A stretch of DNA of 44,646 nucleotides, taken from a virus (taxonomy: Duplodnaviria; Caudoviricetes). Positions 1-16,486 of this stretch are shown piece by piece (position 1 is the stretch's first letter; every line of letters starts with the position of its first letter). A program made the translations under genes and the position numbers. Below the pieces are notes generated by a model. It did not search any database. It worked only from the letters and a program-made list of their open reading frames with translations, and was not told the DNA's origin. Location: the IMG/VR virus record IMGVR_UViG_3300033485_000302, positions 1-44,646 of that record; one strand, written 5' to 3'.

Positions 1-1
1 A

Positions 2-754
2 GACCCGTTACTGCAAAAGACCATTGATTCCCTGTTTGAGAGTTCGCAGTTAGGGGACAAACTTGAGGTAATAGCGGTTATGGATGGGTGCTGGACACCG
101 CTACGGGATGACGACAGGCTGACCATAGTTCACTTAGGACGTAACCGGGGCATGAGGGGGGCTATTAATGCCGGAGTGCGGGTAGCCAGAGGCGAGTTTA
201 TCATGCGGACTGACGAGCATTGTATGTTCGGGCCGGGATATGACCGGATATTAACTGATACCTGTGAACCCAACTGGATAGTCACAGCTACTAGGTATTT
301 CCTTGACCCGGTTGTATGGGAGCGGATGGATATGGAGCCGGTCAATTACGAGAAGCTGGTTATTCAGGATGGAGTTAAGTTTGCCGGACAACGCTGGAGC
401 AGTCGGGATGAGGAACGGAAAAACATAATGATTGACGAGACGATGGCTATGCAGGGCTCTATGTGGGTTATGCCTCATGCGTGGTGGGATAAGGTAATCG
501 GTGAGTTGCAGACTGAGGGCTACGGGCCGAGTTACCAAGACTCCCATGAGATGATATTTAAGACTTGGCAAGCCGGTGGCAAAATGATGTTAAACAAGAA
601 CACTTGGTTTGCACATAAGCACAGGATGTTTCCCCGGACCCATCAGGAAGGCAGCCCCGAAAACCCCTCTAAGCGTGAAAGCAGTTGGGCTTATGCCTTA
701 TCAGTGTGGAAAGATTACTACGAGAAGGAAGTGAGGCCAAAATGGGGGATATGA
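2..754 (+). CDS. GT-A glycosyltransferase, ppGalNAc-T (GT27)/GT2-like; 5'-truncated by window edge
   Basis: Frame is open from base 2 (DPLLQKTIDSLFESSQLGDKLEVIAVMDG...). Motifs N.GMRGAINAG, RTDEHC (DxH), ETMAMQGS, KTWQAGG, FAHKHR. Paralog of 6945..7910. Confidence 0.85.
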   Translation, partial: DPLLQKTIDSLFESSQLGDKLEVIAVMDGCWTPLRDDDRLTIVHLGRNRGMRGAINAGVRVARGEFIMRTDEHCMFGPGYDRILTDTCEPNWIVTATRYFLDPVVWERMDMEPVNYEKLVIQDGVKFAGQRWSSRDEERKNIMIDETMAMQGSMWVMPHAWWDKVIGELQTEGYGPSYQDSHEMIFKTWQAGGKMMLNKNTWFAHKHRMFPRTHQEGSPENPSKRESSWAYALSVWKDYYEKEVRPKWGI

Positions 755-1215
755 TACTACATATAGGATGTGAGAATAAATATTACGAAGGAATGATTAA
801 TAGTGATGTTGTAATAGATGAAAGAAAGAAACCTCGTAAATTGGACATGGTAATGGATGTTTCTAAACCATGGCCTTATAAAGACAATTCGGTTGATGGC
901 ATAATTTCCATGCACGTTTTACAACAACTTGTATGGCGAGATTTAGTATTTGCCATGAAAGAAGCTTATAGAGTTTTAAAAATTGGTGGAGTGATGCGTT
1001 TAGGAGTTCCAGCTATTGAGAATGATAAACCATTGGAGTATTTATTGGGTTGGAATAATGTTAATTTATTTAGTGTTGATCTTTTATCAAATGTGCTTTC
1101 GAAGATTGGATTTCTTCATGTAAAACTTTGTCATTATCAGGAATCAAAAGTCCCTCAATTTATTAAAGTTGATAATAGGCCTGAAGAAACTATTTATTTG
1201 GAGGTAGTTAAATGA
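751..1215 (+). CDS. Class I SAM-dependent methyltransferase (Methyltransf_11-like)
   Basis: LHIGC, D..KPWPYKDNSVDGI, EAYRVLKIGG. ATG 751 overlaps the upstream TGA (ATGA). Confidence 0.8.
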   Translation: MILHIGCENKYYEGMINSDVVIDERKKPRKLDMVMDVSKPWPYKDNSVDGIISMHVLQQLVWRDLVFAMKEAYRVLKIGGVMRLGVPAIENDKPLEYLLGWNNVNLFSVDLLSNVLSKIGFLHVKLCHYQESKVPQFIKVDNRPEETIYLEVVK

Positions 1216-2003
1216 GACGTCCTACTAAAATTAACTTTGAAAGTTCTACAAGCTGTAATGCCATGTGCACGTTTTGTCCAAGATACACTATGACGAGGAA
1301 GATGGGGCAGATGACTGATGAATTGTTTTACAAGATCATCAGGGAAGGCAAGGAAATGGGTGTTTACAATTACTCCCCATTTCTTAACGGTGAGCCGTTT
1401 GTGTTTCCCCGTATCTGGAAGTGGTTGGATTATATGGAGAAAGAAGGCGTGGGTGTAGGGCTATATACTAACGGTGAATTTATAGACGTTGACCGGATTA
1501 TCAGGTATAAGAACATCCGTTACATCAACTGCAGCGTCAATGCCGCCACTAAAGAGACTTATGACAAGGTAATGCGGAAGCCTAATTACGATAGGGTCAA
1601 GAAAAATGTGGATAACTTGTTTAAAAAGGCTCCTTTCATGGTCAGAACGTCCTTTGTGGTGACTGAGGATAACATCCATGAGGTTAAACAGTTTAAAAAG
1701 CAGTACAGAAGGACAAATATAGTGGGTTTTTATGACTGGACAGGCGATAAACACGACAAATACACCAGAAAAGGCGAAAAAGAACCTTGTTATGTGCTTT
1801 TACACCAGATGTTTGTTCTGTGGGACGGGAGAGTGGTAGCCTGTTGTCCCGATTATGACGCTAAACTCGTAATTGGTGACGCCAATAAAGAAAATTTAAA
1901 AGATATTTGGAAGAATAACGAGTGGATGAGGGCAAAACACGTTGCGGGCAAGTGGGATGAGATACCGATATGTAAAAACTGTAACTACAACACTAAATTA
2001 TGA
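1212..2003 (+). CDS. Radical SAM protein with C-terminal SPASM/twitch domain
   Basis: CNAMCTFC (CxxxCxxC), GEP, YTNG; C-terminal PC...WDGRVVACCPD...IGD...W...CKNC. Confidence 0.9.
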   Translation: MRRPTKINFESSTSCNAMCTFCPRYTMTRKMGQMTDELFYKIIREGKEMGVYNYSPFLNGEPFVFPRIWKWLDYMEKEGVGVGLYTNGEFIDVDRIIRYKNIRYINCSVNAATKETYDKVMRKPNYDRVKKNVDNLFKKAPFMVRTSFVVTEDNIHEVKQFKKQYRRTNIVGFYDWTGDKHDKYTRKGEKEPCYVLLHQMFVLWDGRVVACCPDYDAKLVIGDANKENLKDIWKNNEWMRAKHVAGKWDEIPICKNCNYNTKL

Positions 2004-2263
2004 AATGCGTATATGTCAGGTGGTGTGATGCCTGTAGCGACACAAACGGGTGGAAGTCGATTGAGGATGCCCTTTGCTGGGCTAACGGGGTTGAGTGGCT
2101 GGTAGAAACTACCGGTTGGGTGTTGAAAGAAACGAAATACTACTTGTTACTTGCTCAACAGCGCGGGGACTGGAAAGGCGGAGATGACTACCAGTACGCC
2201 AATTTAATGAAAATACCTAAGACTTGGATAAAACTAAGGGTGGATATAACCAGACACATATGA
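2000..2263 (+). CDS. Hypothetical phage protein
   Basis: ATGA-coupled at both ends; V.W.DA....W...T.GW pattern. Confidence 0.65.
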   Translation: MKCVYVRWCDACSDTNGWKSIEDALCWANGVEWLVETTGWVLKETKYYLLLAQQRGDWKGGDDYQYANLMKIPKTWIKLRVDITRHI

Positions 2264-2913
2264 ACGATTTAACAGTTATATTTCTGACAGTCAACAGAGT
2301 GCCTGAAGGCTGGGCTAAGTACCAGCGTCAGGTATTAGAGGAAGCCATAGGCGATACGCCCATTATCACTATTTCAAAGAAACCTTTGGATTGGGGCTTG
2401 AACTTGCTTCAGGACGGGGAGCCAAGCGTACCTAACATCTACAGGCAGATTTTGAGGGGCTGTAATGCCTCTAAAACGCCTTATATTGCCATAGCCGAGG
2501 ATGACACGCTCTACCACAAGAGTCACTTTGAGTACAGGCCACCAATGGACAGTTTTGCGTTTAATGGACATAGATTTGGTTTATTTACTTGGGGTAAGCC
2601 TATTTTTTATTTTAAAGACAGAATATCTAATGCTTGTATGATTGCACCACGTCAATTAGTTATAGATTCTTTAGAAGAACGGTTTAAAAAATACCCTCAT
2701 AATAATTTGGGTGAGTTGGGTAAAGAAAAAGGGACAAATATTGATAGAAGAAAAACGGTAATATTTGAATCTGAAATATCAGTTGTATATTTAAGTCATA
2801 AAAATTCTCTTGATCCAACAGAACAACATAAAAGTAAAAAGATGGGAACAGTTCAGGCAATAGAAATTCCATATTGGGGTAGAGCTGATTATATAAGGAG
2901 TAAATGGATATGA
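2260..2913 (+). CDS. GT-A fold glycosyltransferase-like protein (paralog family 1 of 3)
   Basis: YIAIAEDDTLY (DxD-like), PIITISKKP, C-terminal EIPYWGRA. Start moved to ATG 2260 (ATGA overlap). Confidence 0.7.
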   Translation: MNDLTVIFLTVNRVPEGWAKYQRQVLEEAIGDTPIITISKKPLDWGLNLLQDGEPSVPNIYRQILRGCNASKTPYIAIAEDDTLYHKSHFEYRPPMDSFAFNGHRFGLFTWGKPIFYFKDRISNACMIAPRQLVIDSLEERFKKYPHNNLGELGKEKGTNIDRRKTVIFESEISVVYLSHKNSLDPTEQHKSKKMGTVQAIEIPYWGRADYIRSKWI

Positions 2914-3521
2914 AGGTATGTTTTGATTTACATGATTTTAGTGTAGTTAATAATCGTTTATTGTGGTTATTAACATTAAAAGATAAATTTCCTAGTTTTA
3001 AGGTTTCATTATTTACTGTGCCTATTGATGAAAAACAAGATTGGGGACCGTACACGATTAAATCAGATTATTTAACTGAGATAAAAAAGAATTTAGATTG
3101 GATTCAGATAATACCTCATGGTTTGTACCACCTCCGTAATGAGTTTATCAACACGACCTATGAGGAGTTTAAGGAAGTTTTGAAAAAGATAGAGAAAGTG
3201 TTTGAAAATGACGGACTGCCTTTTGAGAAAGGTTTTTGCGCTCCGCACTGGCGTTGGAACGAGGGCGTGGTCAAAGCCCTAAACGAAACAGGTTGGTGGG
3301 GGGCTATTGATCCTAGACAATCTAAAATGTTAAAGACTAAGAAATACTATAAATATTCTCATTCGATTGATGCTATTGATTATTCTCAAAATGTATTAAA
3401 ACTTCATGGTCATATTTATGGAACTGATAATGATCTAGGTAAGTGTTTTGATAATTTATTGAAATTACCTGTAAATGTAGAGTGGCATTTTATTACAGAT
3501 TTTATTGAAGATAAATTATGA
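2910..3521 (+). CDS. Polysaccharide deacetylase-like (NodB/DUF2334-type) protein
   Basis: FDLHD, SLFTVP, PHGLYH, GFCAPHW, LHGH metal-site pattern; alternative start 2904. Confidence 0.7.
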   Translation: MKVCFDLHDFSVVNNRLLWLLTLKDKFPSFKVSLFTVPIDEKQDWGPYTIKSDYLTEIKKNLDWIQIIPHGLYHLRNEFINTTYEEFKEVLKKIEKVFENDGLPFEKGFCAPHWRWNEGVVKALNETGWWGAIDPRQSKMLKTKKYYKYSHSIDAIDYSQNVLKLHGHIYGTDNDLGKCFDNLLKLPVNVEWHFITDFIEDKL

Positions 3522-3564
3522 CAATTCATATAAGTAATATTGCAGAATTATATAGGAGGTTAGT

Positions 3565-4137
3565 ATGACATTGCTTTGTAAATTAGGTTTTAAATATGGT
3601 ACTGATAAATGTCCTCAGTATGATCATTCATATACACCCGTATATTTCAAGATGTTTAAAAATAGACGAAAGTTAGTCAAGAAAGTATTTGAGTTTGGTG
3701 TAGGCATACAGGAATCTATGAGAAATGTTCCTAATTATAAACCGGGTGCAAGTTTATATATGTGGCGGGATTTTTTCCCTAATGCTCAGATATACGGTGC
3801 AGATATATCTTCCGAAGCTATATTTAAAGACGATAGAATAGAAACTTTTTTATGTGATGAGATGGATAAGAAAGCGGTAACTAAACTTATTAAAAAAATT
3901 GGTAAGGATATTGATTTATTTGTTGATGACGCTACTCATTACTTAAATAATCAATATTATTTATGTAAATTAGTAATGCCTCTTTTGAAGAAAGATGTAA
4001 TTTATTCAATAGAAGATGTGCTTAATTCACGATTATTAGTTCGTAGATTAACACGGGATGGATATAGATGCGAAATTCCACCATTTAAAAGTTTAAAATA
4101 CCGTGATCGCATGGTTATTGTACAAAATAAAATATGA
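3565..4137 (+). CDS. SAM-dependent O-methyltransferase, sugar O-MTase-like
   Basis: KYGTDK..HSY, FEFGVG, SLYMWRDFFPNAQIYGADI, DLFVDDATH, IED; AGGAGG SD upstream. Confidence 0.8.
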   Translation: MTLLCKLGFKYGTDKCPQYDHSYTPVYFKMFKNRRKLVKKVFEFGVGIQESMRNVPNYKPGASLYMWRDFFPNAQIYGADISSEAIFKDDRIETFLCDEMDKKAVTKLIKKIGKDIDLFVDDATHYLNNQYYLCKLVMPLLKKDVIYSIEDVLNSRLLVRRLTRDGYRCEIPPFKSLKYRDRMVIVQNKI

Positions 4138-5054
4138 AACCATTTAATGTTTATCAGTATTTAGAGGGTGAAGAAATGACTGAACGGGATAAGATGGAAG
4201 TTGGGAGTAAGTTTTGGAATAAAGGCAAATGGGATAATTTTGTTTTACCATTTTTACCACAGGATTGTAGTGATATGACATTTATTGATATGGGATGTAA
4301 TAAGGGGTTATTTCTTAATTTAGCTCAGGAAAAAGGATTTAGAAATGTAATCGGGGTTGATGGGGATAAGGATGCGGTTGAAAAAGGTATTTTATGGAGA
4401 GATAGACATGGAAAATCATATAAATTGCTTAATTTAAAGATGGAAGAATGTATTGATCAATTACCTTTGGCAGATTATACAGTGTTTGCTAATTCTCATT
4501 ATTATTTCACTGTAAATGACTGGACTGATTATCTTGATGTATTACAATATAAAACCCGCTATGTGATTATTGTAACGGCTGAAAAACGGCATTTAAACAG
4601 ATGTTGGGCTTCTGCTGGTTTAGATGAAATCAGAAGTAATTTCAGATTTTGGAAGGAAGTTGGATTTATTGATGAATTACCAATTAAAGATGATCCTATG
4701 CCTCGTAGGTTATGGGGACTGTGTTTTGAAAGTCCACATTTAGAAAGAATTGAGATAAATAAGCTTGATTCCAGCAATCATGTTCAGGATAGTTTTTGGG
4801 GTGAACTTGATAATGGGATTGATTATCATAAAACTCATTATTATCGGATATTAATTAAATATAGAAGGCATTGGGGAGTGGAAAAACTGGATAAGTGGAT
4901 GGAAGAAAGAATTAGGATTTATAAAGACTTAAAAGAAAACGGATTAAAGAAACCTATACTAGTTGATTCAGGAATATTAATTTTAGATGGAAACCATAGG
5001 TATTCGGGTTTAAAACACTTGGGGTATAAAAATATCATTATCAGGCGGGTATGA
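4134..5054 (+). CDS. Class I methyltransferase fused to C-terminal ParB/Srx-like domain
   Basis: FIDMGCNKG, VIGVDGD; C-terminal LKENGLKKPILV...ILDGNHRY..LKHLG. Confidence 0.75.
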   Translation: MKPFNVYQYLEGEEMTERDKMEVGSKFWNKGKWDNFVLPFLPQDCSDMTFIDMGCNKGLFLNLAQEKGFRNVIGVDGDKDAVEKGILWRDRHGKSYKLLNLKMEECIDQLPLADYTVFANSHYYFTVNDWTDYLDVLQYKTRYVIIVTAEKRHLNRCWASAGLDEIRSNFRFWKEVGFIDELPIKDDPMPRRLWGLCFESPHLERIEINKLDSSNHVQDSFWGELDNGIDYHKTHYYRILIKYRRHWGVEKLDKWMEERIRIYKDLKENGLKKPILVDSGILILDGNHRYSGLKHLGYKNIIIRRV

Positions 5055-5695
5055 CAAAAACAATTATTTACATTACAAGTAATAGGGAAAATCCAAATTT
5101 CGAAGAAAAAATACAGGATGATTTGATTTTAAAAGCTGGAGGTATTCCGATTATAAGCGTGTCACAAAAACCTATTAATTTAGGGACTAATATCTGTGTA
5201 GGAGATGTAGGTACTTCCGGATATAATATCTGCCGTCAGATTTTAATTGGTTGTGAATATGCTAAAAGTGACTTTGTGATTAGTGCTGAAGCTGATTGTT
5301 TATATTCCCCGGATTATTTTAAATATATACCTGAGAAATTAAATGTTCCTTATAGAAATACAAATATTTATGTTCGTAAGTATAAACAGGATTATTTTTG
5401 TAAAAAAGATAGTTCTTTATTTGCTCAGATTGTAGGACGAGAATTTTTTATTAATAGGCTTAAAGAATTATTTGGAGATGGATTAATGTGGAATAAAGAT
5501 CTAAAGAATTGGCCTAAAGAATGGGGCAAGGTTTTATTTGATAAATTTGAATATTTTGAAACTAAATATCCCTGTATATCTTTTAAAACTGGCAGAGGAT
5601 TACGAAAACATAGTTCAACAAATGAAATAAAAATACCTGAAATTCCTTATTGGGGTAAAGCATCAGATTTAAGAAGGAAATATGAAGATAATTGA
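5051..5695 (+). CDS. GT-A fold glycosyltransferase-like protein (paralog family 2 of 3)
   Basis: PIISVSQKPINLGTN, FVISAEADCLY, EIPYWGKA. Confidence 0.7.
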   Translation: MTKTIIYITSNRENPNFEEKIQDDLILKAGGIPIISVSQKPINLGTNICVGDVGTSGYNICRQILIGCEYAKSDFVISAEADCLYSPDYFKYIPEKLNVPYRNTNIYVRKYKQDYFCKKDSSLFAQIVGREFFINRLKELFGDGLMWNKDLKNWPKEWGKVLFDKFEYFETKYPCISFKTGRGLRKHSSTNEIKIPEIPYWGKASDLRRKYEDN

Positions 5696-6302
5696 TGGAT
5701 TAAAGTTAAAAGGTAGGCCGGCAGAGATTCCTGATTGTAGTCGAAACGATATGCCTGAATTTTTTAAAAGTCAAGGATTTAAAGCCGGAGTAGAAGTTGG
5801 AGTTTTTGAAGGGGAATATACTGAAATATTGGCTAAATCGGGATTAAAAATATTTGGGGTTGATCCTTGGTTAGATTACGAAAATTATGTATATGGTAGA
5901 AATAACCAATCAAAACTTAACAAGTTGTATGAAAAAACAATTAAAAGATTAACTCCTTATCCTAATGTATATATTATTAGGAAAATGTCCATGGATGCAG
6001 TTAAGGATTTTGATGATAATAGTTTGGATTTTGTATATATTGACGCTAATCATAGGTTTAAGTATATAGCTGAAGATTTATGTGAATGGAGTTCTAAGGT
6101 TAAGATGGGCGGAATTATTTATGGGCATGATTATGCCTATTTTAGGCATAGATTTTTAGGTGGTGGATGTCAAGTTAAAGAAATAGTAGATGCTTTTGCT
6201 TTATCTTTTGATTTAGACTTCTGGATATTAGGCAGGAAGAAAGATAAAAACCGTGATCATTACAGGTCATGGATGTTTATAAAGACATGGGAAAACAAAT
6301 AA
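5682..6302 (+). CDS. Class I methyltransferase (Methyltransf_24-like)
   Basis: GVEVGVFEG, GVDPW, SLDFVYIDANH, GGIIYGHDY. Confidence 0.85.
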   Translation: MKIIDGLKLKGRPAEIPDCSRNDMPEFFKSQGFKAGVEVGVFEGEYTEILAKSGLKIFGVDPWLDYENYVYGRNNQSKLNKLYEKTIKRLTPYPNVYIIRKMSMDAVKDFDDNSLDFVYIDANHRFKYIAEDLCEWSSKVKMGGIIYGHDYAYFRHRFLGGGCQVKEIVDAFALSFDLDFWILGRKKDKNRDHYRSWMFIKTWENK

Positions 6303-6979
6303 TTTACTACACGGACAACAGGCTGGATGAGCCGATATTCTCGGAAGTCCAGAAACGGCTTTTAAATACCGGGCTTCCTATTGTCAGCGTGTCTCTTAGC
6401 CCGATTGACTTCGGTAATAATACGGTGGTTGAGGGTTATCCCGGAGCTTATACCATGCTCCACCAGATACTTACGGCTTTAAAGAACAGTTGGGAGGATT
6501 ATGTGTTTTTCTGTGAGCATGACGTCCTTTATCCCATGAGCCACTTTGACTTTACCCCGCCCAGAGACGACATATTCTACTACAACGCCCATGTGTGGCG
6601 GTGGGATTATCCTAAAGACAGGTTTGTGACCTATGACCGGCTGATTTCCCTGTCCTCGCTCTGCTGTAACCGGAAACTGGCTTTGAAACAGTATCAGGAC
6701 CGGATAGACAAAGTAAAAGATATGGGTTGGTACAAAGATGTTGCCCGTGACCCCGACTGGGCTAGGCTTATGGGGTTTGAGCCGGGGACTAAGAAGAAAA
6801 AGCGGGGGGGATTCAGTGATGACGACTTTGATACATGGAGCTCAAAAGACCCCATTATAGACATCAGGCATAATAAAACCTATTCCAAACGTAAAGTCAG
6901 TTTAAGCGACTTCAAACATCCGCCTGAGAACTGGAAGGAGGCTCATGGACTTATCAATCCTGATTCCTTCCCGAAATGA
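6287..6979 (+). CDS. GT-A fold glycosyltransferase-like protein (paralog family 3 of 3)
   Basis: IIYYTDN, PIVSVSLSPIDFGNN, VFFCEHDVLY. Start 6287 aligns with the N-terminus of 5051. Confidence 0.7.
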   Translation: MGKQIIYYTDNRLDEPIFSEVQKRLLNTGLPIVSVSLSPIDFGNNTVVEGYPGAYTMLHQILTALKNSWEDYVFFCEHDVLYPMSHFDFTPPRDDIFYYNAHVWRWDYPKDRFVTYDRLISLSSLCCNRKLALKQYQDRIDKVKDMGWYKDVARDPDWARLMGFEPGTKKKKRGGFSDDDFDTWSSKDPIIDIRHNKTYSKRKVSLSDFKHPPENWKEAHGLINPDSFPK

Positions 6980-7910
6980 GATGTTTCTTAAAAACACGAT
7001 AGAGGACGCCCTGAAAAACATAGAGGCTGATACCGAGATTATTGCTTTACTGGACGGGGTATGGGCTGATCCGGCTATAATCCAAAACGACAGGGTGAAT
7101 ATCATCCATGTCAATAGGCCCGTAGGACAAAGGGCGGGAACTAATATAGCCTGTAGGTTAAGCCGAGCTAAGTATATAATGAAAGTTGACGCCCATTGTT
7201 CTTTTGATCAGGGATTTGATAAGAAGATGCTGGAGTTTTTTAAGACTGTCGGGGATAACGTTACCGCAGTACCCATAATGAGAAACCTGTGGGCCTTCGA
7301 CTGGAAGTGCTACCACTGCGGGTGGAAGAAATATCAGGGGCCGACACCCGAAAAGTGCGGTCAGTGCGGGAAAAATGACCGAATTAAGCGGAAAATGCTG
7401 TGGATAGGGAAACATAATCCCCAGTCAACTTCCTATACTTTTGATTCCGAACCCCATTTCCAATACTTTGAAGATTGGAAGCACCGTCCCCAGTATGAAA
7501 AGGATAAAAGGGAAAAAGGCTACACTGAAACCATGAGCTTACAGGGGTCATGCTTCATGTGTACCCGTGATAAATACTGGGAGCTTGAGTTGTGTGATGA
7601 GAACTTAGGTAACTGGGGCAATCAGGGAATTGAAGTGGCGGTTAAGACTTGGCTTTCCGGGGGACAGGTACTAGTTAATCACAATACATGGTACGCCCAT
7701 ATGTTCAGGACTCAGGGTGGTGATTTTAGTTTCCCGTGGCCCGCAGGGGGGCGTGATACCCAAAGAACTAAAGACAATGTCAAGAATTTACTGTGGGGTG
7801 GGAAGTGGCCTAAACAGATCAGGAAGCTGTCATGGCTTATTGAGAAGTTTGCACCCGTCAAAGGATGGAGTGCCGAGGATATAAAGAAGCTAAAAGAAAT
7901 GGGAAATTAG
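6945..7910 (+). CDS. Polypeptide GalNAc-transferase-like (GT27/GT2) glycosyltransferase with CxxC-CxxC insert
   Basis: LSILIPSRNE, KVDAHC, ETMSLQGSCF, WGNQGIEV..KTWLSGG, YAHMFR...FSFP. Confidence 0.85.
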   Translation: MDLSILIPSRNEMFLKNTIEDALKNIEADTEIIALLDGVWADPAIIQNDRVNIIHVNRPVGQRAGTNIACRLSRAKYIMKVDAHCSFDQGFDKKMLEFFKTVGDNVTAVPIMRNLWAFDWKCYHCGWKKYQGPTPEKCGQCGKNDRIKRKMLWIGKHNPQSTSYTFDSEPHFQYFEDWKHRPQYEKDKREKGYTETMSLQGSCFMCTRDKYWELELCDENLGNWGNQGIEVAVKTWLSGGQVLVNHNTWYAHMFRTQGGDFSFPWPAGGRDTQRTKDNVKNLLWGGKWPKQIRKLSWLIEKFAPVKGWSAEDIKKLKEMGN

Positions 7911-7986
7911 ACTTAGTGGCAGTTTAGTGGTATTAGGTAATCGTCTATCGTCAATAGACGCAGGACACGTTGTGTGTCTTTTTTTT
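7908..7986 (+). promoter_or_regulatory. Repeated leader element copy 1 (promoter/hairpin/CAG/hairpin/U8)
   Basis: TAGACT-17-TATTAG-GTAAT; CGTCTA..TAGACG; CAG; GACAC-GTTGT-GTGTC; T8; ATG 7987. Confidence 0.75.
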
Positions 7987-10368
7987 ATGGCATTTAACTA
8001 TAACGCAAATACCAAATCATACTCATATATCCCAAAGGATAACCCGAAGGACAGGGTTGAAATTGAAATCGGGGACGCATTAGACTCGTCAGCCTTCTTT
8101 CCGCAGGTGAAGATTAAACGCTGGGATAATGAGGTCAATTCGTCAATCCGCCTTAACTATGCCAACATCCCCGGAAGCGTCAGTTATTCCGATGACGGTA
8201 CGACTATCACTTGGCAGAAAGGTCAATGGATTGCCAAGTTCTACCACAGGGACGACTTGTCTGAAGGCGGTTTTGAATTTGAAATCCATATACCCAAAAA
8301 GCCTCCGATAAACTATCTTGAGTTTACAGTCAACATTAAAGACTTGGATTGGTTCTATCAACCCGCATTAACCCAACAGGAAATAGACGAGGGAGCAGTC
8401 AGACCTGATAACGTAGTCGGCTCTTATGCGGTCTACCACAAGACTAAAGGCGGGATGAACGACAGCGCAGGGATGGAATATAAAGTCGGTAAGGCTTTCC
8501 ATGTCTACAGACCTCATGTAGTTGACGCAAATGGCAGTGAAACATGGGGAGAGTGGAGCTTAAACTTACAGACAGGAATTTTAACCCTAACTGTAGACCA
8601 GACATGGCTGAATAATGCGGTCTATCCGGTAATTGTTGATCCGACATTTGGGTATACAGGTTTAGGAGCTTCAGGTGCTACTATTGAAAATTTTATTTCT
8701 TTTGATTATTATGCTGCTCCTCAAAATGGAAGCGTAACACAAATGTCAGCAGGAACATATAGTTCAGATGGTGCTTCCAAGAAATCAAAATGTGCTTTAT
8801 ATCAATATGTATCTACTTCAAATGTAGGTAGTATTTTGGATTCATCAGATGAAATTTCTATAACAAATACTACTGCATTAACATTTAATGATTATCCAAA
8901 TGTAAATGTAGAAATTACAGCTACAACAAATTATTATTTATGTGTATTTGGTGAAACATCTACAGCTAATCATTATTGCGCTTTTGATGATGATAATGTA
9001 GATGATTATGGGTTTGCTGCTGCTACTTATCCTACTTTTCCTGATCCAATTACTGGTGAAAGCAACCCTTCAGGTGAAAGGCAGTATTCCATCTACGCCA
9101 CCTATACAGCAGCAGGTTCTTTTTCTCCATCTCTTAGTCCTTCCTTCTCACCAAGTGTCAGCCCTTCGGTTAGTCTTTCACCATCTCTAAGCCCCTCATT
9201 ATCACCTAGCCTTTCACCTTCAGTTAGCCCTAGTGTATCTTTGTCACCCAGTCTTAGTCCCAGCTTCAGTCCTTCTGTTTCACCTTCGGTATCTATTAGT
9301 CCTTCTTTTAGTCCCAGTATCAGTCCTTCTGTATCGCCCAGTGTGTCAATTTCACCTAGCTTATCTCCCTCGATAAGCCCAAGTGTTTCACCTAGCGTAT
9401 CAATATCTCCATCTATCTCTCCTTCACTAAGCCCATCTCTTAGTCCTAGTTTATCACCTAGTTTTTCACCCTCTCTTAGTCCTAGTATATCGCCCAGCGT
9501 ATCACCTTCAGTATCTATCAGTCCTAGCTTTTCACCAAGCCTGAGTCCAAGTATCTCACCTTCAACTTCACCCAGCGTTTCTATCTCACCATCAATTAGT
9601 CCAAGCCTTAGTCCGTCCATAAGCCCTAGCGTGTCACCAAGTGTTTCTATTTCACCCAGTATCTCACCCTCGGTTTCACCCAGCCTTAGTCCATCTATAA
9701 GCCCCAGTATCTCACCCTCAGTTTCGCCATCAGTTTCTATCAGTCCTAGTTTAAGCCCCAGCCTTAGTCCCAGCATATCGCCTTCATTTAGTCCTAGCCT
9801 GTCACCCAGTCTTAGTCCATCAATCTCACCTAGCTTTTCACCAAGCCTGTCACCCTCAATCAGTCCCTCTTTGTCACCCAGCCTTAGTCCTTCTGTTTCA
9901 CCATCAGTCTCAATATCGCCATCGGTTAGCCCTTCGATAAGTCCCAGCGTGTCACCTAGTGTCGGATATTCCCTTTATACAAGAGGGGATTATGCAACCT
10001 TACCTACAACTGACGGTGCTTTGGAAACAGCTTATTCTGCTTCAGATGTAACTAACGTATCTACCAAAAACGATGTCAGGGTTTCCCAAACCGCAACCAG
10101 CCAGTATGCTATCCATCAGTTTAAGGATTATGTGGGGTCAAGCGCCAACTGTACTTTGGAGTGGGAAGGGCAGACAGATTACGCCCCCTCAGCTTCTACA
10201 GTTTATTTACAGATATACAACCAGACAACTGACGCATGGACGACTGTGGACAGCGATAATGCTTCGGCTGCTGATACTGATTTTACTTTAACGGCAGATA
10301 TAGCTGATTTAACCAATTATAAAGACGGGCAGGATTTAATTTCCTGTCGGGTTTATCAGGACGGATAA
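7987..10368 (+). CDS. Virion structural protein with ~280 aa Ser-Pro repeat stalk
   Basis: N-terminal domain ending YPVIVDPTFG, beta-rich middle, SPSX tract, C-terminal beta domain. Start placed at ATG 7987 after the leader element. Confidence 0.75.
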   Translation: MAFNYNANTKSYSYIPKDNPKDRVEIEIGDALDSSAFFPQVKIKRWDNEVNSSIRLNYANIPGSVSYSDDGTTITWQKGQWIAKFYHRDDLSEGGFEFEIHIPKKPPINYLEFTVNIKDLDWFYQPALTQQEIDEGAVRPDNVVGSYAVYHKTKGGMNDSAGMEYKVGKAFHVYRPHVVDANGSETWGEWSLNLQTGILTLTVDQTWLNNAVYPVIVDPTFGYTGLGASGATIENFISFDYYAAPQNGSVTQMSAGTYSSDGASKKSKCALYQYVSTSNVGSILDSSDEISITNTTALTFNDYPNVNVEITATTNYYLCVFGETSTANHYCAFDDDNVDDYGFAAATYPTFPDPITGESNPSGERQYSIYATYTAAGSFSPSLSPSFSPSVSPSVSLSPSLSPSLSPSLSPSVSPSVSLSPSLSPSFSPSVSPSVSISPSFSPSISPSVSPSVSISPSLSPSISPSVSPSVSISPSISPSLSPSLSPSLSPSFSPSLSPSISPSVSPSVSISPSFSPSLSPSISPSTSPSVSISPSISPSLSPSISPSVSPSVSISPSISPSVSPSLSPSISPSISPSVSPSVSISPSLSPSLSPSISPSFSPSLSPSLSPSISPSFSPSLSPSISPSLSPSLSPSVSPSVSISPSVSPSISPSVSPSVGYSLYTRGDYATLPTTDGALETAYSASDVTNVSTKNDVRVSQTATSQYAIHQFKDYVGSSANCTLEWEGQTDYAPSASTVYLQIYNQTTDAWTTVDSDNASAADTDFTLTADIADLTNYKDGQDLISCRVYQDG
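9118..9960 (+). repeat. (Ser-Pro-Ser-[LVIFT])n coding repeat
   Basis: 12-nt periodic degenerate repeat encoding ~281 aa. Confidence 0.95.
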
Positions 10369-10369
10369 T

Positions 10370-11956
10370 ATGGCAGTAGTTGCATCAGGTGGAACAGAAA
10401 TAACAGCTAATGGATATAAATACCATAAGTTTACTTCTGGTGCTAATTTTGTAGTTTCAACAGGTGGTGACGTTGATGTTTTAGTGGTGGCCGGTGGTGG
10501 AGCAGGTGGTGGACGAAACGGGGGTGGCGGTGGAGGAGCTGGTGGTGTTCTTTATGAAACTGGACATACTGTTACAGCTCAAACTTATGCTATTACCGTT
10601 GGTAATGGAGGAACAGGAGCCAGTGGTGATCCGGCTAATGGAGGAAATGGCGCAAATTCTGTTTTTGACGATATAACTGCAACTGGCGGTGGAGGTGGTG
10701 GAGGCGGTGGAAGTACCGGAACAGCATCAAACGGTGGGTCAGGTGGCGGATGTGGAGTATTACGGACAGGTTATTACGGAACAGGAACGTCTGGACAAGG
10801 AAATGATGGTGGAGACACGACTATGCCTTCCCCTTATCCTTCAGGCGGTGGCGGTGGTAAAGGTGCAGTTGGTGGAGCCGGAAGCGGAAGCCAATCAGGT
10901 AGCGGTGGAGCTGGGTCAAGCGCATATTCTTCCTTGTTACAAGATGCTTCAGCCGGAGAAAATGTTGGTGGAACATATTATATAGCCGGTGGTGGTGGTG
11001 GTGGTGGGACAGTGCAAGGAGCATTACCCGGAACAGGAGGTAACGGTGGTGGTGGAGATGGTCATGGAGACGATAGCACTAGTGAGGCAGGAACAGCAAA
11101 TACAGGCGGTGGCGGTGGAGGAACAGGAAGCAATATAGCAATCGCTGGTGGAAATGGTGGATCAGGAATTGTAATTATCAGATATTTAGCTGGTAGCACT
11201 TCCCCTTCAGTATCACCATCTTCCAGTGTCAGCCCATCATCAAGCGTTAGCCCTTCCTCAAGCGTTTCACCTTCGGTATCATTATCCCCATCCCTAAGTC
11301 CTAGCTTGTCACCCTCTTTTTCACCTAGTATTAGCCCATCAGTTAGTGTTAGTCCTTCGGTATCATTGTCACCTAGTTTATCTCCTAGCCTTAGCCCATC
11401 ATTAAGCCCCTCTTTTTCACCTTCGGTAAGTCCTAGTGTTAGCCTAAGTCCTAGCTTGTCACCATCATTATCTCCTAGCTTGTCACCATCATTAAGTCCT
11501 TCCCTAAGTCCCTCAATATCACTTAGTCCCTCTTTAAGCCCGTCATTATCACCTAGTCTTAGTCCCTCAGTAAGCCTCAGTCCCAGTCTTAGTCCCTCAT
11601 TATCACCATCCTTAAGTCCTTCATTGTCTCCATCCGTATCGCCATCGGTGTCACTTAGTCCGTCTAAAAGTCCTTCCCTAAGTCCTTCACTTTCTCCCAG
11701 CGTGGGAATAATTACGCTTCAAACTGACTACTGGAAAGTAACCTTGCCTTCATATACCGAAGCCACAACCCTTTACAAGATTATTGAGGAAGATGAGGGA
11801 TTGTCTATTAGACTTGGCAAGGGAATAATACCAGTCTGGAATACTCAGGGCAGACCCACAGGCAAGACAGGGTTAATAGGCGGTAATTCAACAACAAATA
11901 AGATTGAGTGGTATAACGGAAGCGCATGGAAGAACGCTGACGGAACTGCTGTCTAA
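10370..11956 (+). CDS. Glycine-rich tail/virion protein with Ser-Pro repeat
   Basis: YKYHKFTSG..VLVVAGGG...GGNGGSGIVIIRY glycine-rich domain typical of phage fibre proteins, followed by an SPSX tract. Confidence 0.8.
   Translation: MAVVASGGTEITANGYKYHKFTSGANFVVSTGGDVDVLVVAGGGAGGGRNGGGGGGAGGVLYETGHTVTAQTYAITVGNGGTGASGDPANGGNGANSVFDDITATGGGGGGGGGSTGTASNGGSGGGCGVLRTGYYGTGTSGQGNDGGDTTMPSPYPSGGGGGKGAVGGAGSGSQSGSGGAGSSAYSSLLQDASAGENVGGTYYIAGGGGGGGTVQGALPGTGGNGGGGDGHGDDSTSEAGTANTGGGGGGTGSNIAIAGGNGGSGIVIIRYLAGSTSPSVSPSSSVSPSSSVSPSSSVSPSVSLSPSLSPSLSPSFSPSISPSVSVSPSVSLSPSLSPSLSPSLSPSFSPSVSPSVSLSPSLSPSLSPSLSPSLSPSLSPSISLSPSLSPSLSPSLSPSVSLSPSLSPSLSPSLSPSLSPSVSPSVSLSPSKSPSLSPSLSPSVGIITLQTDYWKVTLPSYTEATTLYKIIEEDEGLSIRLGKGIIPVWNTQGRPTGKTGLIGGNSTTNKIEWYNGSAWKNADGTAV
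11201..11701 (+). repeat. (Ser-Pro-Ser-X)n coding repeat
   Basis: ~167 aa SPSL/SPSV/SPSS tract. Confidence 0.95.
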
Positions 11957-11958
11957 AG

Positions 11959-12038
11959 TTGACGCTGTTAAATCTTTGATATATAAGGTAATTGCTTTTC
12001 AATAAAATTATTGCAGGCACCCGTGGGTGCTTTTTTTT
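11959..12038 (+). promoter_or_regulatory. Repeated leader element copy 2
   Basis: TTGACG-17-TATAAG-GTAAT; CAATAA..TTATTG; CAG; GCACCC..GGGTGC; T8; ATG 12039. Confidence 0.75.
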
Positions 12039-12049
12039 ATGGAGAAATA

Positions 12050-12625
12050 ATGATTGCGAGAATGGCTTTTAAAATTGGTCATATACCATGGAATAAGGGA
12101 AAAAAAGTTAATATAAAACACGATAAACAGTTTAAAAAGGGCATGATTCCTTGGAATAAAGGGTTAAAAGCAAAGGATGATATAAGAATAAAAAAAATTG
12201 TTGAAGCGGCTCATAGAGCCACTAAAGGAAAACCAAGTAAGAATAGGGGAAAGAAAATAACTTTTAGACATGGGATGTTGGGAAAACATCACTCTGAAGA
12301 ATCTAAAGAAAAAATGAGGAAGCCGCATTATAAAGCAAGAGGAATAAATAACTGGAAATGGAAAGGTGGAACTGGAACAGAAAGACATCAGTTAATGGGT
12401 AAATATGAATATATTAAATGGAGAAGTATGGTTTTTGAAAGGGATAACTATACTTGTCAAGATTGCGGAGTAAAAGGAGTTTATCTTATGGCGCATCATA
12501 AAAAACCATGGACTGAATATCCAGAATTAAGATATGAATTAATAAACGGAATTACTTATTGTAAAGACTGTCATGCTAAAAATGATAAATATTATTCAAG
12601 ATTTTACCAAAGGAGTATAGTTTGA
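12050..12625 (+). CDS. HNH homing endonuclease with NUMOD3-like repeats
   Basis: FK.G.IPWNKG repeats, GKHHSEESKEKMR, VFERDNYTCQDC..AHHKKPW..NGITYCKDCH; AT-rich; GGAG SD. Confidence 0.9.
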   Translation: MIARMAFKIGHIPWNKGKKVNIKHDKQFKKGMIPWNKGLKAKDDIRIKKIVEAAHRATKGKPSKNRGKKITFRHGMLGKHHSEESKEKMRKPHYKARGINNWKWKGGTGTERHQLMGKYEYIKWRSMVFERDNYTCQDCGVKGVYLMAHHKKPWTEYPELRYELINGITYCKDCHAKNDKYYSRFYQRSIV

Positions 12626-13326
12626 GCACTAACTTACAAATAGCAGTGTCGGAAGTATTGGAGATCATGTCAGATCTTCGCGGTGAATCGTCCACCAATA
12701 CTGACGCAATCAGAATAAGAGCTGTATCACGAGCTAATCAGGACTTTGCCCGCAGGCGTTTCTGGAGGTTCTACCGCCTAGACGACCAGACACAGGTAGG
12801 GGACGGGACTAAAAACTATACTATCGGGTCAGCTACTTATCCAATGCGGATGAAAGGCCTGACTGAGGTATTTGTAGATACGACTACAGATACGGACAAA
12901 ACTACCGAAGTAGACAGGTATTCCATAGTTGACTTTAATTCCTACAAGAACTTGTTTAATCAGGATAACACAGCACAAATAGTTTATGAGTGGTTTGATA
13001 CCGCCAATGACCTGTGGAAAATGCACATTAACCCCGCTCCGGCAGCTACAGACACCATAACTTATTCATATTACTGGGAACCGCCTGAGAAAACCGCTAC
13101 AACTGACGAAATCATCTGCCCGGACATCCAGATTGTAGCCCGTTTAGCCTTAGGTGAGATATACGAGGGCGAGGATGAACAGGACTTAGCTGACAAGCAG
13201 AAAAACGTAGCCGAACAGCTAATTAACGAATATATATCCAAAGACAATGCCCCGGCAGTAAACCAGACTTACAGCATGGGCGCAATAGAAAACGTAACAA
13301 GTACAAACGGGTTTGGAACTTATTAG
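12622..13326 (+). CDS. Putative head-tail adaptor (tail tubular protein A-like)
   Basis: Size, helical N-terminus, W.FY, INPAP..T.TYSY motif, and position before the nozzle-like gene; TTG start. Confidence 0.6.
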   Translation: MSTNLQIAVSEVLEIMSDLRGESSTNTDAIRIRAVSRANQDFARRRFWRFYRLDDQTQVGDGTKNYTIGSATYPMRMKGLTEVFVDTTTDTDKTTEVDRYSIVDFNSYKNLFNQDNTAQIVYEWFDTANDLWKMHINPAPAATDTITYSYYWEPPEKTATTDEIICPDIQIVARLALGEIYEGEDEQDLADKQKNVAEQLINEYISKDNAPAVNQTYSMGAIENVTSTNGFGTY

Positions 13327-13327
13327 T

Positions 13328-15637
13328 ATGACAAGGTACTATGCACCGCCTAAAACCAAAGAAAAACTTTACATTTCAAAACAGGACAAATGGATCAGGG
13401 GCCTGAATACCCTTGTATCTAATACTCAAATCCGTCCTGACGAACTCTCCGAAGCCACAGATATCCAGTTAGTTGAGGATGGCAAAATCCAATGTCCCCG
13501 TGACGGGCAGGCGTATTACGGCAACACTTCCGGCAACCGTGTCACCGGCATATTTGCCTATTACAAGTCAGACGGGACTAAGGAACTTTTAAGGGTCGCC
13601 CAGTCATATTTGCAGAAATACAATACAACCACGGAAGATTGGGATAATGTCAGCGGGACTACTTTTTCGGTAACGTCAGCTTCTCCGTCAGTTTCACCCA
13701 GCCCATCGGTGTCTCCCAGCTCGTCAACTTCGCCCAGCGTGTCTAAAAGCCCTTCGTTTTCCCCGTCAGTTAGCCCGTCTGTCTCTATCAGTCCCTCTAT
13801 CAGCCCATCGGTCAGCCCCAGCGTTTCCATATCTCCATCCATTTCACCATCGACTAGCCCCAGTGTTTCTTTAAGCCCCAGTTTATCACCTTCTGTTTCA
13901 CCTTCGGTATCGGTTAGCCCTAGTGTTTCTTTAAGCCCGTCTGTATCTCCCTCAGTCAGCCCGTCTGTCTCTATCAGCCCTTCAAAGTCTTCCTCAGTCA
14001 GTCCCAGTTCTTCAGTCAGCCCTTCAATATCGCCCAGTTATGCCAACTCCCTTAACACTAACGGGGTAATGGCATATGACAGGCTGTATCTGCAGAACGG
14101 GACTGATCCTTTGTGTTACTATGATGGCAGTTCCATAGTTACCTTTACTTCCATACTTGCCCCGACCAGCCCGACAGCAACCAGAACCGGGGGATCTGCC
14201 GGAACATACACCTATTCGTACAAGGTAACGGCAGTAACGGCAGTCGGGGAGACCGATCCGTCCATTACCGCCTCTACAACGGCTGATTTTGCACCGGATA
14301 ACATGGACGCCACCCATTATATAACAGTAGGCTGGACAGCCTCGGCTAATGCTATCGGGTACAACATATATGGCCGGACAGACGGTTATTGGAGATTCTT
14401 ATACTATGCCGAAGGCCAAACAACAGCCTCATGGGTGGATGACGGGTCTTTTGATGAATCTGAAGTGTTTACGCCACCGACAGCCAATAATACTGCCGGA
14501 CCGACAGGGAAGTACATAGCTTTGTATAAGGACTCCCTGTTTGTATATGGCGATCCCGATAACCCGTCCAGACTTTTCTACTCAGGTGGCGGGGACCGGG
14601 TCAATGATTTCTCGGTTTCCAATGGCGGGGGTTTTATTGACGTATCTAAGAACGATGGTCAGATGGGTACGGGGCTGATTATATTTAAGAACACCCTGTT
14701 ATGTTTTAAGGAAGATTCCATTTACCAGTTTGAATTTACAACCGCAGGTTTACCCCAAGTTACCCAAGTTAATGCTGCCGTAGGCTGTATTGCCCCCCGG
14801 TCAATAGTGGCTGTGGAAAACGATGTATTCTTTGCTTCAAGGCGGGGGATATTTTCTATCGGCAACGAACCCGGATTTGCTTTTGACGTACTGAGAACCA
14901 ATGAGATATCCGCAAGGGTCAGAAGCATATTCCAGTCTATCGAATCTGAGTATGTAGGCAATATTGCAGCCGTTTACGCTACCAAAGCCAATGTCAATTT
15001 AGTAATATTCGCTTATACCCCGTCAGGGTCATCAACTAACGGGGAAGCTCTGGTTTATGACCGGGAAAGACTGGCATGGGTCAAGTGGACTAACATCAGG
15101 GCTAACTGCTGGGTCAACTATATTGACACTACCGGAACAGTCAGGGTTATTTACGGGGATGACGCCAGTGGTTACTGCAAAGAAATCCTAACCGGAGATG
15201 ATGATTTCGGGTCAGGAATCCCCGGAAGGTTTACGCTTCGGGCTGAGGAGTTTAAGGAAGGGCTGGACCGCTACAAGAAACTGAAAGACGTTTCACTGGT
15301 ACTCAGGGAGCCAACGGGGTCAGTTACCATGTCGGTTATCAAAGACGGAACGGAAACCTCGCTTACCATGAACGTATCAACTGTGGCTCCGGCTATAAAC
15401 TTCGGACACTACATTTTTGCGCTGTTTCAGTTTGCGGATTCCTACGGAACAGGGGCGGTAACTTCCTCGGATGACAACGTGCTTCGGACTAAACGCAACC
15501 TCAACCTTGAGGGTAGGAGCTTCATGTTATCCTTTACTAACGGCAGCTCCGGGGCTTCTTTCACGCTACTTCAGACAACCATGACAGCCAAGATGAGGGC
15601 ATTTAAGTACAGAAAGAGTACTGATATTATTTCGTAA
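13328..15637 (+). CDS. Putative tail nozzle / DNA stabilization protein (P22 gp10 / T7 gp12-like) with Ser-Pro insertion
   Basis: GLNT..QI..E..ATDI N-terminus, SRLFYSG, FKEDSIY, VGCIAPRSI..VFFAS..GIF beta-propeller motifs; start at ATG 13328. Confidence 0.7.
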   Translation: MTRYYAPPKTKEKLYISKQDKWIRGLNTLVSNTQIRPDELSEATDIQLVEDGKIQCPRDGQAYYGNTSGNRVTGIFAYYKSDGTKELLRVAQSYLQKYNTTTEDWDNVSGTTFSVTSASPSVSPSPSVSPSSSTSPSVSKSPSFSPSVSPSVSISPSISPSVSPSVSISPSISPSTSPSVSLSPSLSPSVSPSVSVSPSVSLSPSVSPSVSPSVSISPSKSSSVSPSSSVSPSISPSYANSLNTNGVMAYDRLYLQNGTDPLCYYDGSSIVTFTSILAPTSPTATRTGGSAGTYTYSYKVTAVTAVGETDPSITASTTADFAPDNMDATHYITVGWTASANAIGYNIYGRTDGYWRFLYYAEGQTTASWVDDGSFDESEVFTPPTANNTAGPTGKYIALYKDSLFVYGDPDNPSRLFYSGGGDRVNDFSVSNGGGFIDVSKNDGQMGTGLIIFKNTLLCFKEDSIYQFEFTTAGLPQVTQVNAAVGCIAPRSIVAVENDVFFASRRGIFSIGNEPGFAFDVLRTNEISARVRSIFQSIESEYVGNIAAVYATKANVNLVIFAYTPSGSSTNGEALVYDRERLAWVKWTNIRANCWVNYIDTTGTVRVIYGDDASGYCKEILTGDDDFGSGIPGRFTLRAEEFKEGLDRYKKLKDVSLVLREPTGSVTMSVIKDGTETSLTMNVSTVAPAINFGHYIFALFQFADSYGTGAVTSSDDNVLRTKRNLNLEGRSFMLSFTNGSSGASFTLLQTTMTAKMRAFKYRKSTDIIS
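13682..14038 (+). repeat. (Ser-Pro-Ser-X)n coding repeat inside nozzle-like protein
   Basis: ~119 aa tract. Confidence 0.95.
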
Positions 15638-15638
15638 T

Positions 15639-15720
15639 TTGACTTAGTAGTTTTTTTGTTATATAAGCTAAACTAGCTATTCGATTAATTGAATCGCAGG
15701 CACCGAAAGGTGTCTTTTTT
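15639..15720 (+). promoter_or_regulatory. Repeated leader element copy 3
   Basis: TTGACT-17-TATAAG; CGATT..AATCG; CAG; GCACC-GAAA-GGTGT; CT6. Confidence 0.75.
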
Positions 15721-15734
15721 AATGGGAGAAACAT

Positions 15735-16364
15735 ATGGCAAACGCAGTTTATCTTGAAGGTGGATCATCTAAAAATGCAACAGCAGCTAAGACGCTGTAT
15801 CTTGCTAATTCCTACGGTATTATCAACAGCGTTTCCCTAAACACCAACGGTGCGACAGTCACTCTTTACGACAACACTTCAGCTACAGGCACTTCGCTTG
15901 GAGTTATAGCGACTGACGCCCCTGAGGGAATTTATTTAGAGGGTGTTCCTTTCCGTGTAGGACTTACAGCAGTTATTGGCGGGACTTGTGATGTAACTAT
16001 TACTTGGACAGCCGGAAACTCGACACAAGTTGTGAGTTCAGTCAGCCCGTCATTGTCACCATCATTATCACCATCTATAAGTCCATCAACTAGTCCATCG
16101 GTTTCACTGAGCCCGTCATTTAGCCCATCGGTGTCACCGAGCGTTTCACTGAGCCCATCGGTATCACCTTCAGTGAGTCCTTCAGTTTCGTTGAGTCCAT
16201 CACTGAGCCCGTCACTAAGTCCCTCACTGAGCCCGTCACTGAGCCCGTCACTGAGCCCGTCTCTGAGTCCTTCAGTGAGCCCTAGTGTAAGCTTATCACC
16301 ATCGTTAAGTCCGTCAATAAGTCCGTCATATAGTCCGTCACCGTCACCATCAAGTGATATGTAA
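15735..16364 (+). CDS. Small beta-sandwich virion protein with C-terminal Ser-Pro tail (candidate decoration protein)
   Basis: TLYDNTSATGT...F..GL..V...DVTITW domain followed by a ~107 aa SPSX tail; GGAG SD. Confidence 0.7.
   Translation: MANAVYLEGGSSKNATAAKTLYLANSYGIINSVSLNTNGATVTLYDNTSATGTSLGVIATDAPEGIYLEGVPFRVGLTAVIGGTCDVTITWTAGNSTQVVSSVSPSLSPSLSPSISPSTSPSVSLSPSFSPSVSPSVSLSPSVSPSVSPSVSLSPSLSPSLSPSLSPSLSPSLSPSLSPSVSPSVSLSPSLSPSISPSYSPSPSPSSDM
16035..16355 (+). repeat. (Ser-Pro-Ser-X)n coding repeat
   Basis: Includes near-exact CTGAGCCCGTCA tandem copies at 16227-16262. Confidence 0.95.
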
Positions 16365-16372
16365 GGAAATAT

Positions 16373-16486
16373 ATGCCTTATAAAAGCGAGAAGTAGCGAA
16401 GATTTATGCACGCAAAGCATCCCAAGATTGCAAAGAAATGGGATAAAAAATACGGATCAAAAGTAGTTAAAAAAAGGAACAGATAA
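16373..16486 (+). pseudogene. Small basic phage protein (MPxKSEKQRR-type) interrupted by TAG at codon 8
   Basis: MPYKSEK*RRFMHAKHPKIAKKWDKKYGSKVVKKRNR; fills the intergenic gap exactly; TAAGGA upstream. Confidence 0.6.

Follow-up and report, generated by a model that had tools for sequence, protein, structure and literature searches.

What does a glycosyltransferase (GT) resembling the GALNTs, the enzymes that prime mucin-type O-glycans, do in a phage genome next to genes for proteins with long runs of alternating serine? The question is raised by the IMG/VR virus record IMGVR_UViG_3300033485_000302, analyzed here over its whole length of 44,646 bases (the window), which is the near-complete genome of an uncultured short-tailed phage. 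An earlier note on this DNA had proposed a phage-encoded mucin-type O-glycosylation system in which the enzyme at 6945..7910 and its paralog prime the serines of (SPSX)n tracts in virion proteins. Virion glycosylation is documented in few phages, chlorovirus capsids are also glycosylated, and GALNT-type priming of mucin tracts is treated as eukaryotic. As judged from sequence comparison and a predicted structure, the soluble kit of this phage quite probably attaches O-linked glycans, while still in the cytoplasm of the host, to the alternating-serine tracts of four proteins encoded in its particle region, and the kit can with good confidence be regarded as a mobile module for serine-tract O-glycosylation. 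The observation itself is real and, on this reading, would be a variant of known protein O-glycosylation and virion glycosylation.

The enzyme and its candidate acceptors

6945..7910 (+): main GT27/GT60-like enzyme, 321 amino acids (aa), with a four-cysteine Zn-ribbon insert; predicted to prime serine
7927..10368 (+): Protein A, N domain, 279-aa tract (9124-9960) and C domain; putative particle protein
10370..11956 (+): Protein B, glycine-rich fibre-type domain, 167-aa tract (11201-11701) and small C domain
12011..12625 (+): HNH endonuclease insertion, outside the system (PF01844)
12622..13326 (+): SU10-type adaptor without a tract (PF24175)
13313..15637 (+): Protein C, virion structural protein with an optional 119-aa tract (13682-14038)
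15735..16364 (+): Protein D, 103-aa domain and C-terminal 103-aa tract (16044-16352)

The motifs that the earlier note quoted for 6945..7910 (KVDAHC, ETMSLQGSCF, WGNQGIEVAVKTWLSGGQV and YAHMFRT..FSFP) and for 2..754 (TDEHC, KTWQAGG and FAHKHR) are all present, and the two proteins are paralogs (24% identity, E 4e-18). A single-sequence PDB search with 6945..7910 returned GALNTs as its first 15 sequences. With a 53-member profile, 14 GALNTs ranked above chondroitin synthase, whose match covers the N terminus only. Using the predicted model (pLDDT 95), every Foldseek match listed, to rank 49, was a GALNT (best E 2e-17). In a wide structure comparison (VIA), the model matched mouse GalNAc-T1 with Z 26.5 (root-mean-square deviation 3.0 over 275 residues) and Toxoplasma T3 with Z 25.2, compared to Z 18.4 for the best non-GALNT GT; sequence identity to GALNTs is ~17%. 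The closest structures are GALNTs by a clear margin, and not the polysaccharide or lipopolysaccharide GT2 enzymes that the earlier note had named as the alternative.

The residues expected of a polypeptide transferase are also retained. D82, H84, H252 and R255 of the metal site and loop occur in 53/53 relatives and the gate Trp and pocket residues W224, G225, F172, Y174 and F254 in 52/53, a conservation that is partly expected among proteins mostly 46-81% identical. F172/Y174/F254 correspond to the GalNAc-T1 proline pocket F280/W282/F361, and W224 to the gate Trp331, as mapped by GalNAc-T1 sequence alignment and the numbering in the available portions of PMC6994419 and bioRxiv 2020.06.25.171371 rather than by superposition. 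According to PMC7185993, DxH is found in no GT families other than GT27 and GT60, both of which glycosylate polypeptides on Ser/Thr, and GT60 members are reported from prokaryotes and protists. GT60 enzymes are lectin-less GlcNAc transferases that include a cytosolic member (PMC8724618, in part). The enzyme family comprises at least 5,203 protein clusters.

The four tracts sum to 668 aa, close to the ~675 aa first estimated, and contain 342 Ser and 4 Thr, with Ser at 336/336 alternate positions. Every Ser codon family is used and no 24-mer is common to the four tracts, which points to selection on the protein pattern; a DNA slippage repeat was ruled out on the same grounds. Contigs from a second study match the tract DNA at 9470-10144 with one difference and at 13703-14142 with none, ruling out an assembly artefact. 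Antisense open reading frames (ORFs) over the tracts (9102..9776 and 15932..16420) were dismissed as shadows of the repeat. Pro is found at +1 of 144/334 tract Ser and at +3 of 148/334.

The tract genes had been described as four structural genes directly downstream of the enzyme. There are indeed four, with the HNH and adaptor genes between the second and third, and family matches support two of them, B and C, as particle proteins. Protein B matches PF21722 (Gly_rich_2), phrog_2295, phrog_1325 and, weakly, phrog_863, a weak tail PHROG being among these matches; its small C domain is common to chromosomal Ser-Pro proteins. Protein C matches phrog_3287 (virion) on both sides of the tract insert and by position is probably the tail nozzle, a label that draws on position and PHROG because Protein C has no PDB sequence match. 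PDB sequence searches likewise gave no match for Protein D or for the U family introduced below. Look-alikes of Protein A are almost all viral (only unnamed viral clusters in atlas searches), and its orthologs in two GT-less phages (51-52% identity) have no tract. Protein D retrieved no family in PHROG/Pfam-type searches; the tract is present in 11/13 of its matches, own contig counted. No membrane segments were found in the enzymes or tract proteins.

Two relatives show other tract forms. One carries a (TPSS)n tract instead of (SPSX)n (L059:11535-12059). Another phage (L061) encodes a divergent GT+U fusion with no long tract in view, and two of its particle-region proteins end in short alternating-Ser tails (L061:1768-2145 and 3125-3577), which recalls mycobacteriophage C-terminal glycosylation.

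Distribution in phages and Patescibacteria

The enzyme and the tracts were found together at most loci with sufficient flanking sequence. An SP[ST] run is encoded in 53/64 viral GT loci. Under a stricter alternating-Ser rule, a tract was detected in 34/35 viral loci with ≥5 kb downstream and in 17/29 with less; for genome GT loci, which here and below are the best 80 of 130 loci in the genome scan, the counts were 34/40 and 17/40. In the genome misses L205/L206 and L247, tracts lie just past the fetched flank. In the reverse search, 78 flanked pattern loci gave 16 contigs with a tract of ≥100 aa, ten of them with the GT in view, and the GT was found in 8/15 further records drawn from unflanked tract-pattern loci and searched whole.

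A tail-anchored control was built from 110 Protein C loci, own contig excluded, obtained with an alignment query (a single-sequence tail-protein query gave no loci). Among the 37 non-redundant loci with ≥6 kb upstream, 32 have neither enzyme nor tract, three have both, two have the tract only and none has the GT only (Fisher p 0.0013, uncorrected for descent). One of the two tract-only records has the GT further off; the other ends at 6.3 kb. Capsid-anchored loci were too short for use as a control. Protein C homologs contain ≥5 SPS in 10/120 cases, and most are ~640 aa without the insert, including one at 82% identity; ~18/120 begin just past the insertion site and cannot be scored. Records ≥90% complete have neither element in 7/8 cases and both in 1/8, as scored with an insensitive DNA tract pattern. 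The first such pattern mostly matched non-tract frames, and since the second missed the six-residue-period tract of G011, absence by DNA pattern is weak evidence. In phages, with few exceptions, the GT is therefore not found independently of serine tracts.

G046, a phage of a different type in which the main enzyme family has no match, encodes a 1,810-aa Ser-Pro tract protein (L395:13960-19389) and three other DxH enzymes ~55 kb away (G046:C1:1-17700; L400, L402 and L403). The DxH enzyme tested has a WGGEE motif and a GALNT match of E 3e-6, just behind GT2 at 5e-7; one GT27-like enzyme of G046 has a C-terminal methyltransferase-like domain. As another GT27-like subfamily is encoded there, G046 was set aside as a counter-example of a tract without an enzyme, and its gene content suggests a second enzyme-tract pairing of the same kind.

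The earlier note had treated the system as a phage one, but the glycosylation kit is not phage-specific: it is present in Patescibacteria chromosomes without phage genes. Genome-locus labels are largely Microgenomates, Parcubacteria, WWE3, Saccharibacteria and Patescibacteria; many others read Gammaproteobacteria, yet these group with Patescibacteria-type labels in the tree. The particle genes of the window were matched in almost none of the 80 loci, and no terminase match was found in five cassette-bearing genomes, which are incomplete. The island is sporadic, as 6/400 sampled genomes of the phylum of G054 matched. Viral and cellular copies interleave in a FastTree tree (at least 11 label changes versus 43 for shuffles). 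Because the same kit is found in Patescibacteria chromosomes and the copies interleave, the host of the phage is likely a Patescibacterium.

Some chromosomal copies adjoin genes for twin-arginine translocation (Tat), in places arranged as tatA-tatA-tatC. tatC is adjacent in 16/80 cellular and 0/64 viral loci, and tatA-like genes occur in ten cellular loci (6/6 tested were confirmed). On inspection, the chromosomal giant tract proteins lack a signal peptide, and the small C-terminal domain of Protein B recurs at the end of several of them. At L221:11122-19722, L223:12433-17635, L232 and L246, the gene for the giant Ser-Pro protein comes first, followed by one encoding 64-68 aa, then tatA-like genes and tatC; the 64-68 aa product resembles the C-terminal domain of the giant protein and of Protein B. 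At 14 genome loci, one of them L253:4258-4881, a gene 5′ of the cassette encodes a membrane protein with an internal [KR]RxFL[KI] twin-arginine-like motif. Three such proteins tested have no Pfam match; by its motif this protein is a possible Tat carrier. Three tandem ~373-aa Ser/Thr-rich paralogs lie directly 3′ of the GT at L205/L206:11117-14522 and L260:11742-15121.

The cassette and its proposed action

2..754 (+): GT27/GT60-like paralog without Zn insert, 5′ end short by ~10 codons (PF00535)
742..1215 (+): small S-adenosylmethionine (SAM) methyltransferase, accessory (PF08241; 7/64 viral and 9/80 genome GT loci)
1212..2003 (+): radical SAM/SPASM enzyme, accessory (PF04055+PF13186; 6/64 viral GT loci)
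2260..2913 (+): U1, GT-A-fold paralog with ExD motif, predicted chain-extending GT (family alignment A2, fold of U3)
2904..3521 (+): DUF2334-like putative deacetylase (weak PF10096, E 0.007; homolog of 41162)
3565..4137 (+): methyltransferase-like protein (phrog_21658, E 9e-7)
4134..5054 (+): methyltransferase with C-terminal extension (PF13489)
5051..5695 (+): U2, GT-A-fold paralog (family alignment, fold of U3)
5682..6302 (+): core methyltransferase (Methyltransf_24, PF13578), predicted glycan O-methyltransferase
6269..6979 (+): U3, GT-A-fold paralog (model pLDDT 94; generic GT-A matches, Z about 12)
38783..40207 (+): two-domain GT2 directly 3′ of the capsid region (PF00535, two stretches; 8/9 capsid-anchored loci)
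40137..40781 (+): methyltransferase (PF08241)
41162..41779 (+): second putative deacetylase (homolog of 2904)
41776..42771 (+): GT4-like (GT-B) glycosyltransferase (phrog_7162, E 4e-37; weak PF13692)
43928..44646 (+): UDP-sugar 6-dehydrogenase, 3′ end cut (PF03721+PF00984; homologs in 11/64 viral GT loci)

The module extends beyond what was first noted, taking in U1-U3 and, at 38.8–44.6 kb, GT and methyltransferase genes together with the sugar-dehydrogenase gene. The window starts within the paralog 2..754 and ends within the dehydrogenase, and these two genes probably adjoin across the genome join; no overlap between the window ends was found. A single glycosylation block would then probably separate the capsid gene from the tail module, starting at 38.8 kb and continuing over the join as far as 7.9 kb. 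For the 2..754 family, profile A4 aligned over its full length to GalNAc-T4/T1 (E 1e-12), with GT2 enzymes close behind on the N-terminal part only, and the single sequence gave no GALNT match. DxH and C-His are kept in 48/48 members, and the gate position is not Trp. ORFs 2260, 5051 and 6269 form one family (U1-U3), present in 54/64 viral and 73/80 genome GT loci. In 8/64 viral and 38/80 genome loci a member of this family is fused with the GT27-like domain, an arrangement that speaks for a common pathway. The Methyltransf_24 enzyme occurs in 54/64 viral and 63/80 genome GT loci.

In the pathway that we propose, 6945..7910 and/or 2..754 would bind Mn2+ and a nucleotide sugar through DxH and C-His and attach the initial sugar to Ser residues next to Pro. 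The GT-A paralogs U1-U3, GT2 and GT4 would extend the glycan, the methyltransferases would cap it, and the dehydrogenase and deacetylase-like proteins may tune the sugars. Once glycosylated, the tracts could stiffen into bottle-brush stalks that keep the terminal domains at a distance and cover the tail region. This kit would also be exchanged with Patescibacteria, the likely hosts, where it may glycosylate a giant surface fibre. We favour a spacer-and-coat role, in which the stalks would present terminal domains and resist proteases and non-specific sticking. Mimicry of an animal glycocalyx seems less likely to us, since the runs containing the window DNA are wetland and freshwater samples and the probable hosts carry the same kit.

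Several observations weigh against this pathway. The GT occurs with no Ser tract in view at L056 (viral) and at L242, L258 and L280 (genomes); L258 has Thr-Pro matches only and L242 none. Six of the 16 flanked long-tract contigs have no GT match in view. The locus sets include near-duplicates, and their counts are uncorrected for descent. Most tract Ser have Pro at +1 or +3, not both, so that the S/T-P-X-P sequon is half matched, and the tracts are nearly pure Ser, whereas GALNTs favour Thr (PMC6994419, from the part available). The same source, in part, has Glu334 contacting the sugar O4/O6 and Gly309 the N-acetyl group in GALNTs; here the Glu334 position is Q227 in 47/53 relatives (E in two) and the Gly309 position S202 in 47/53 (A in six). 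Proteins A and D are putative particle proteins, placed there by their position. No cultured phage record matches the enzyme.

6945..7910 has no lectin Pfam match and no hydrophobic segment that could serve as a membrane anchor, and model residues 1-318 find their counterpart solely in the catalytic domain. PF11397 (GT60) matched 23/53 members weakly (E 0.016-1) and the protein of the window not at all, no GT60 chains appeared in the structure searches, in which the fold cannot separate GT27 from GT60, and no 4-epimerase was found in the phage. By sequence and model, the enzyme fits the GT27/GT60 polypeptide-transferase clade but lacks two of the features of GT27 members; since the lectin and membrane parts are absent and two donor-sugar contacts differ, we assign it to this clade rather than to proven GalNAc transfer. 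The mucin-type claim thus divides. Priming of the tract serines is well supported, given the GALNT-best structure and a GT that is not independent of the tracts, and strict alpha-GalNAc/GT27 membership is unsupported. The first sugar probably differs from that of animal mucins: GalNAc is a tentative candidate and GlcNAc an equally tentative one; another hexose or a uronate is somewhat easier to envisage, at less than even chance.

Tracts that are glycosylated but primed by GT4, GT2 or a GT-A paralog, with the GT27-like enzymes extending or capping, would agree with the altered donor residues, the GT4-like gene in the window and the strict (S-X)n alternation, which resembles the substrates of serine-rich repeat proteins, whose priming is done by a GT4 pair. 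We consider this unlikely: GT4 occurs in 1/64 and GT2 in 2/64 GT loci and both are frequent in capsid-anchored loci (partly a distance effect), tracking the capsid gene and not the tracts. The U paralogs are generic GT-A enzymes, and it is the GT27-like enzyme that keeps the peptide-pocket aromatics. An equally improbable alternative is that the tracts are unmodified flexible spacers, the cassette modifies a host surface polymer or glycolipid, and the linkage reflects co-transfer of an island. Adjacent genes are expected to be co-transferred, Pfam assigns both enzymes to GT2, the GT2 at 38783 has weak GtrB-like PHROG matches, and at a few loci the GT is present but no tract is. Against it, tracts are inserted separately in several unrelated proteins, including a core tail protein that is tract-free in GT-less orthologs, and in G046 the pairing is between tracts and another GT27-like subfamily, ~55 kb apart. 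Family searches of the window turned up neither a membrane segment nor a flippase or polymerase. Hypermodification of phage DNA with methylated sugars is very improbable. Phage GTs are known to do so (bioRxiv 2023.12.21.572611, as far as its available text goes) and the PHROG matched by the core methyltransferase carries the label 'DNA methyltransferase', but the 64 ORFs or ORF parts scanned in the window include no cytosine methylase, TET-type dioxygenase or hydroxymethylase, the cassette sits in the particle module, and the tracts and chromosomal copies would be left unexplained.

The proposed glycosylation of the tracts by a GT27/GT60-like primer can be placed among known systems. GT27 (mouse GalNAc-T1, 8v9q/1xhb; human T2, 2ffu) is the best sequence and fold match across the catalytic domain, with DxH, C-His, the gate Trp, the HxFR loop, an aromatic Pro pocket and Ser/Pro-rich candidate acceptors in common. 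Unlike GT27, the phage enzyme lacks membrane anchor, stem and ricin lectin, has the Zn-ribbon insert and the E334→Q and G309→S changes, and is encoded by phages and Patescibacteria. It shares with GT60, including the cytosolic Skp1 enzyme, a lectin-free DxH GT-A domain and the existence of soluble cytosolic members (PMC8724618, accessible parts), although its PF11397 matches are weak (best E 0.016). As in mycobacteriophages Che8, Corndog and Myrna, phage GTs would modify proteins of their own particle; according to Freeman 2023 as cited in PMC12619734, PMC11256854 and PMC12363180, the mycobacteriophage glycans are at the C termini of capsid and tail tube proteins, whereas the candidate tracts here offer hundreds of Ser in fibre- or tail-type proteins. 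Serine-rich repeat proteins (Fap1, GspB and PsrP) also have long (S-X)n tracts beside a GT cluster, with cytoplasmic glycosylation and, in the descriptions partly available, a dedicated export system next door. Here, in contrast, the priming candidate is GT-A/GT27-like, the repeats are Pro-rich and the phage copies need no export; the chromosomal copies examined adjoin Tat and not accessory Sec genes, with no signal peptide. Accessory Sec export genes and a wall anchor were absent from the Pfam/NCBIfam matches of the window. In literature consisting mostly of papers outside subscription, no account of GALNT-like enzymes accompanied by Ser-Pro tracts came to light for either phages or Patescibacteria.

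A large family of small soluble enzymes with a candidate substrate next door makes these questions testable in E. coli. They concern the origin of GT27/GT60 chemistry, surface building in ultra-small bacteria and a possible glycan coat on their phages. Glyco-engineering, which currently needs human GalNAc-T2 expressed in E. coli (PMC13345888), could also draw on a soluble Ser-priming enzyme that has no lectin domain. A bolder possibility, which we hold only tentatively, is that Patescibacteria and their phages share a lectin-less cytoplasmic GT27/GT60 branch that makes genuine mucin-like glycoproteins of bottle-brush form, which phages would insert freely into their virion proteins and cells would export, via a dedicated Tat system, as a giant signal-less fibre. 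This branch would represent either a sister group in prokaryotes or the origin of mucin-type initiation in eukaryotes and, if it exists, would supply a soluble tool enzyme for dense Ser O-glycosylation.

Genome setting

The landmark genes of the phage are the terminase (32531), an SU10/P22-type portal (34091), the major head protein (37338) and the SU10 adaptor (12622). The phage also encodes two large proteins that probably act in ejection. All listed sequencing runs containing window DNA are wetland and freshwater samples, with no RNA runs among them. The HNH gene between the tract genes is optional, as one contig joins 12042 to 12628; further HNH genes lie at 21151, 28512 and 40778. A metallophosphoesterase gene is located at 25021-25953, and the replication-initiator gene holds short tandem repeats (29950-30045), a possible origin.

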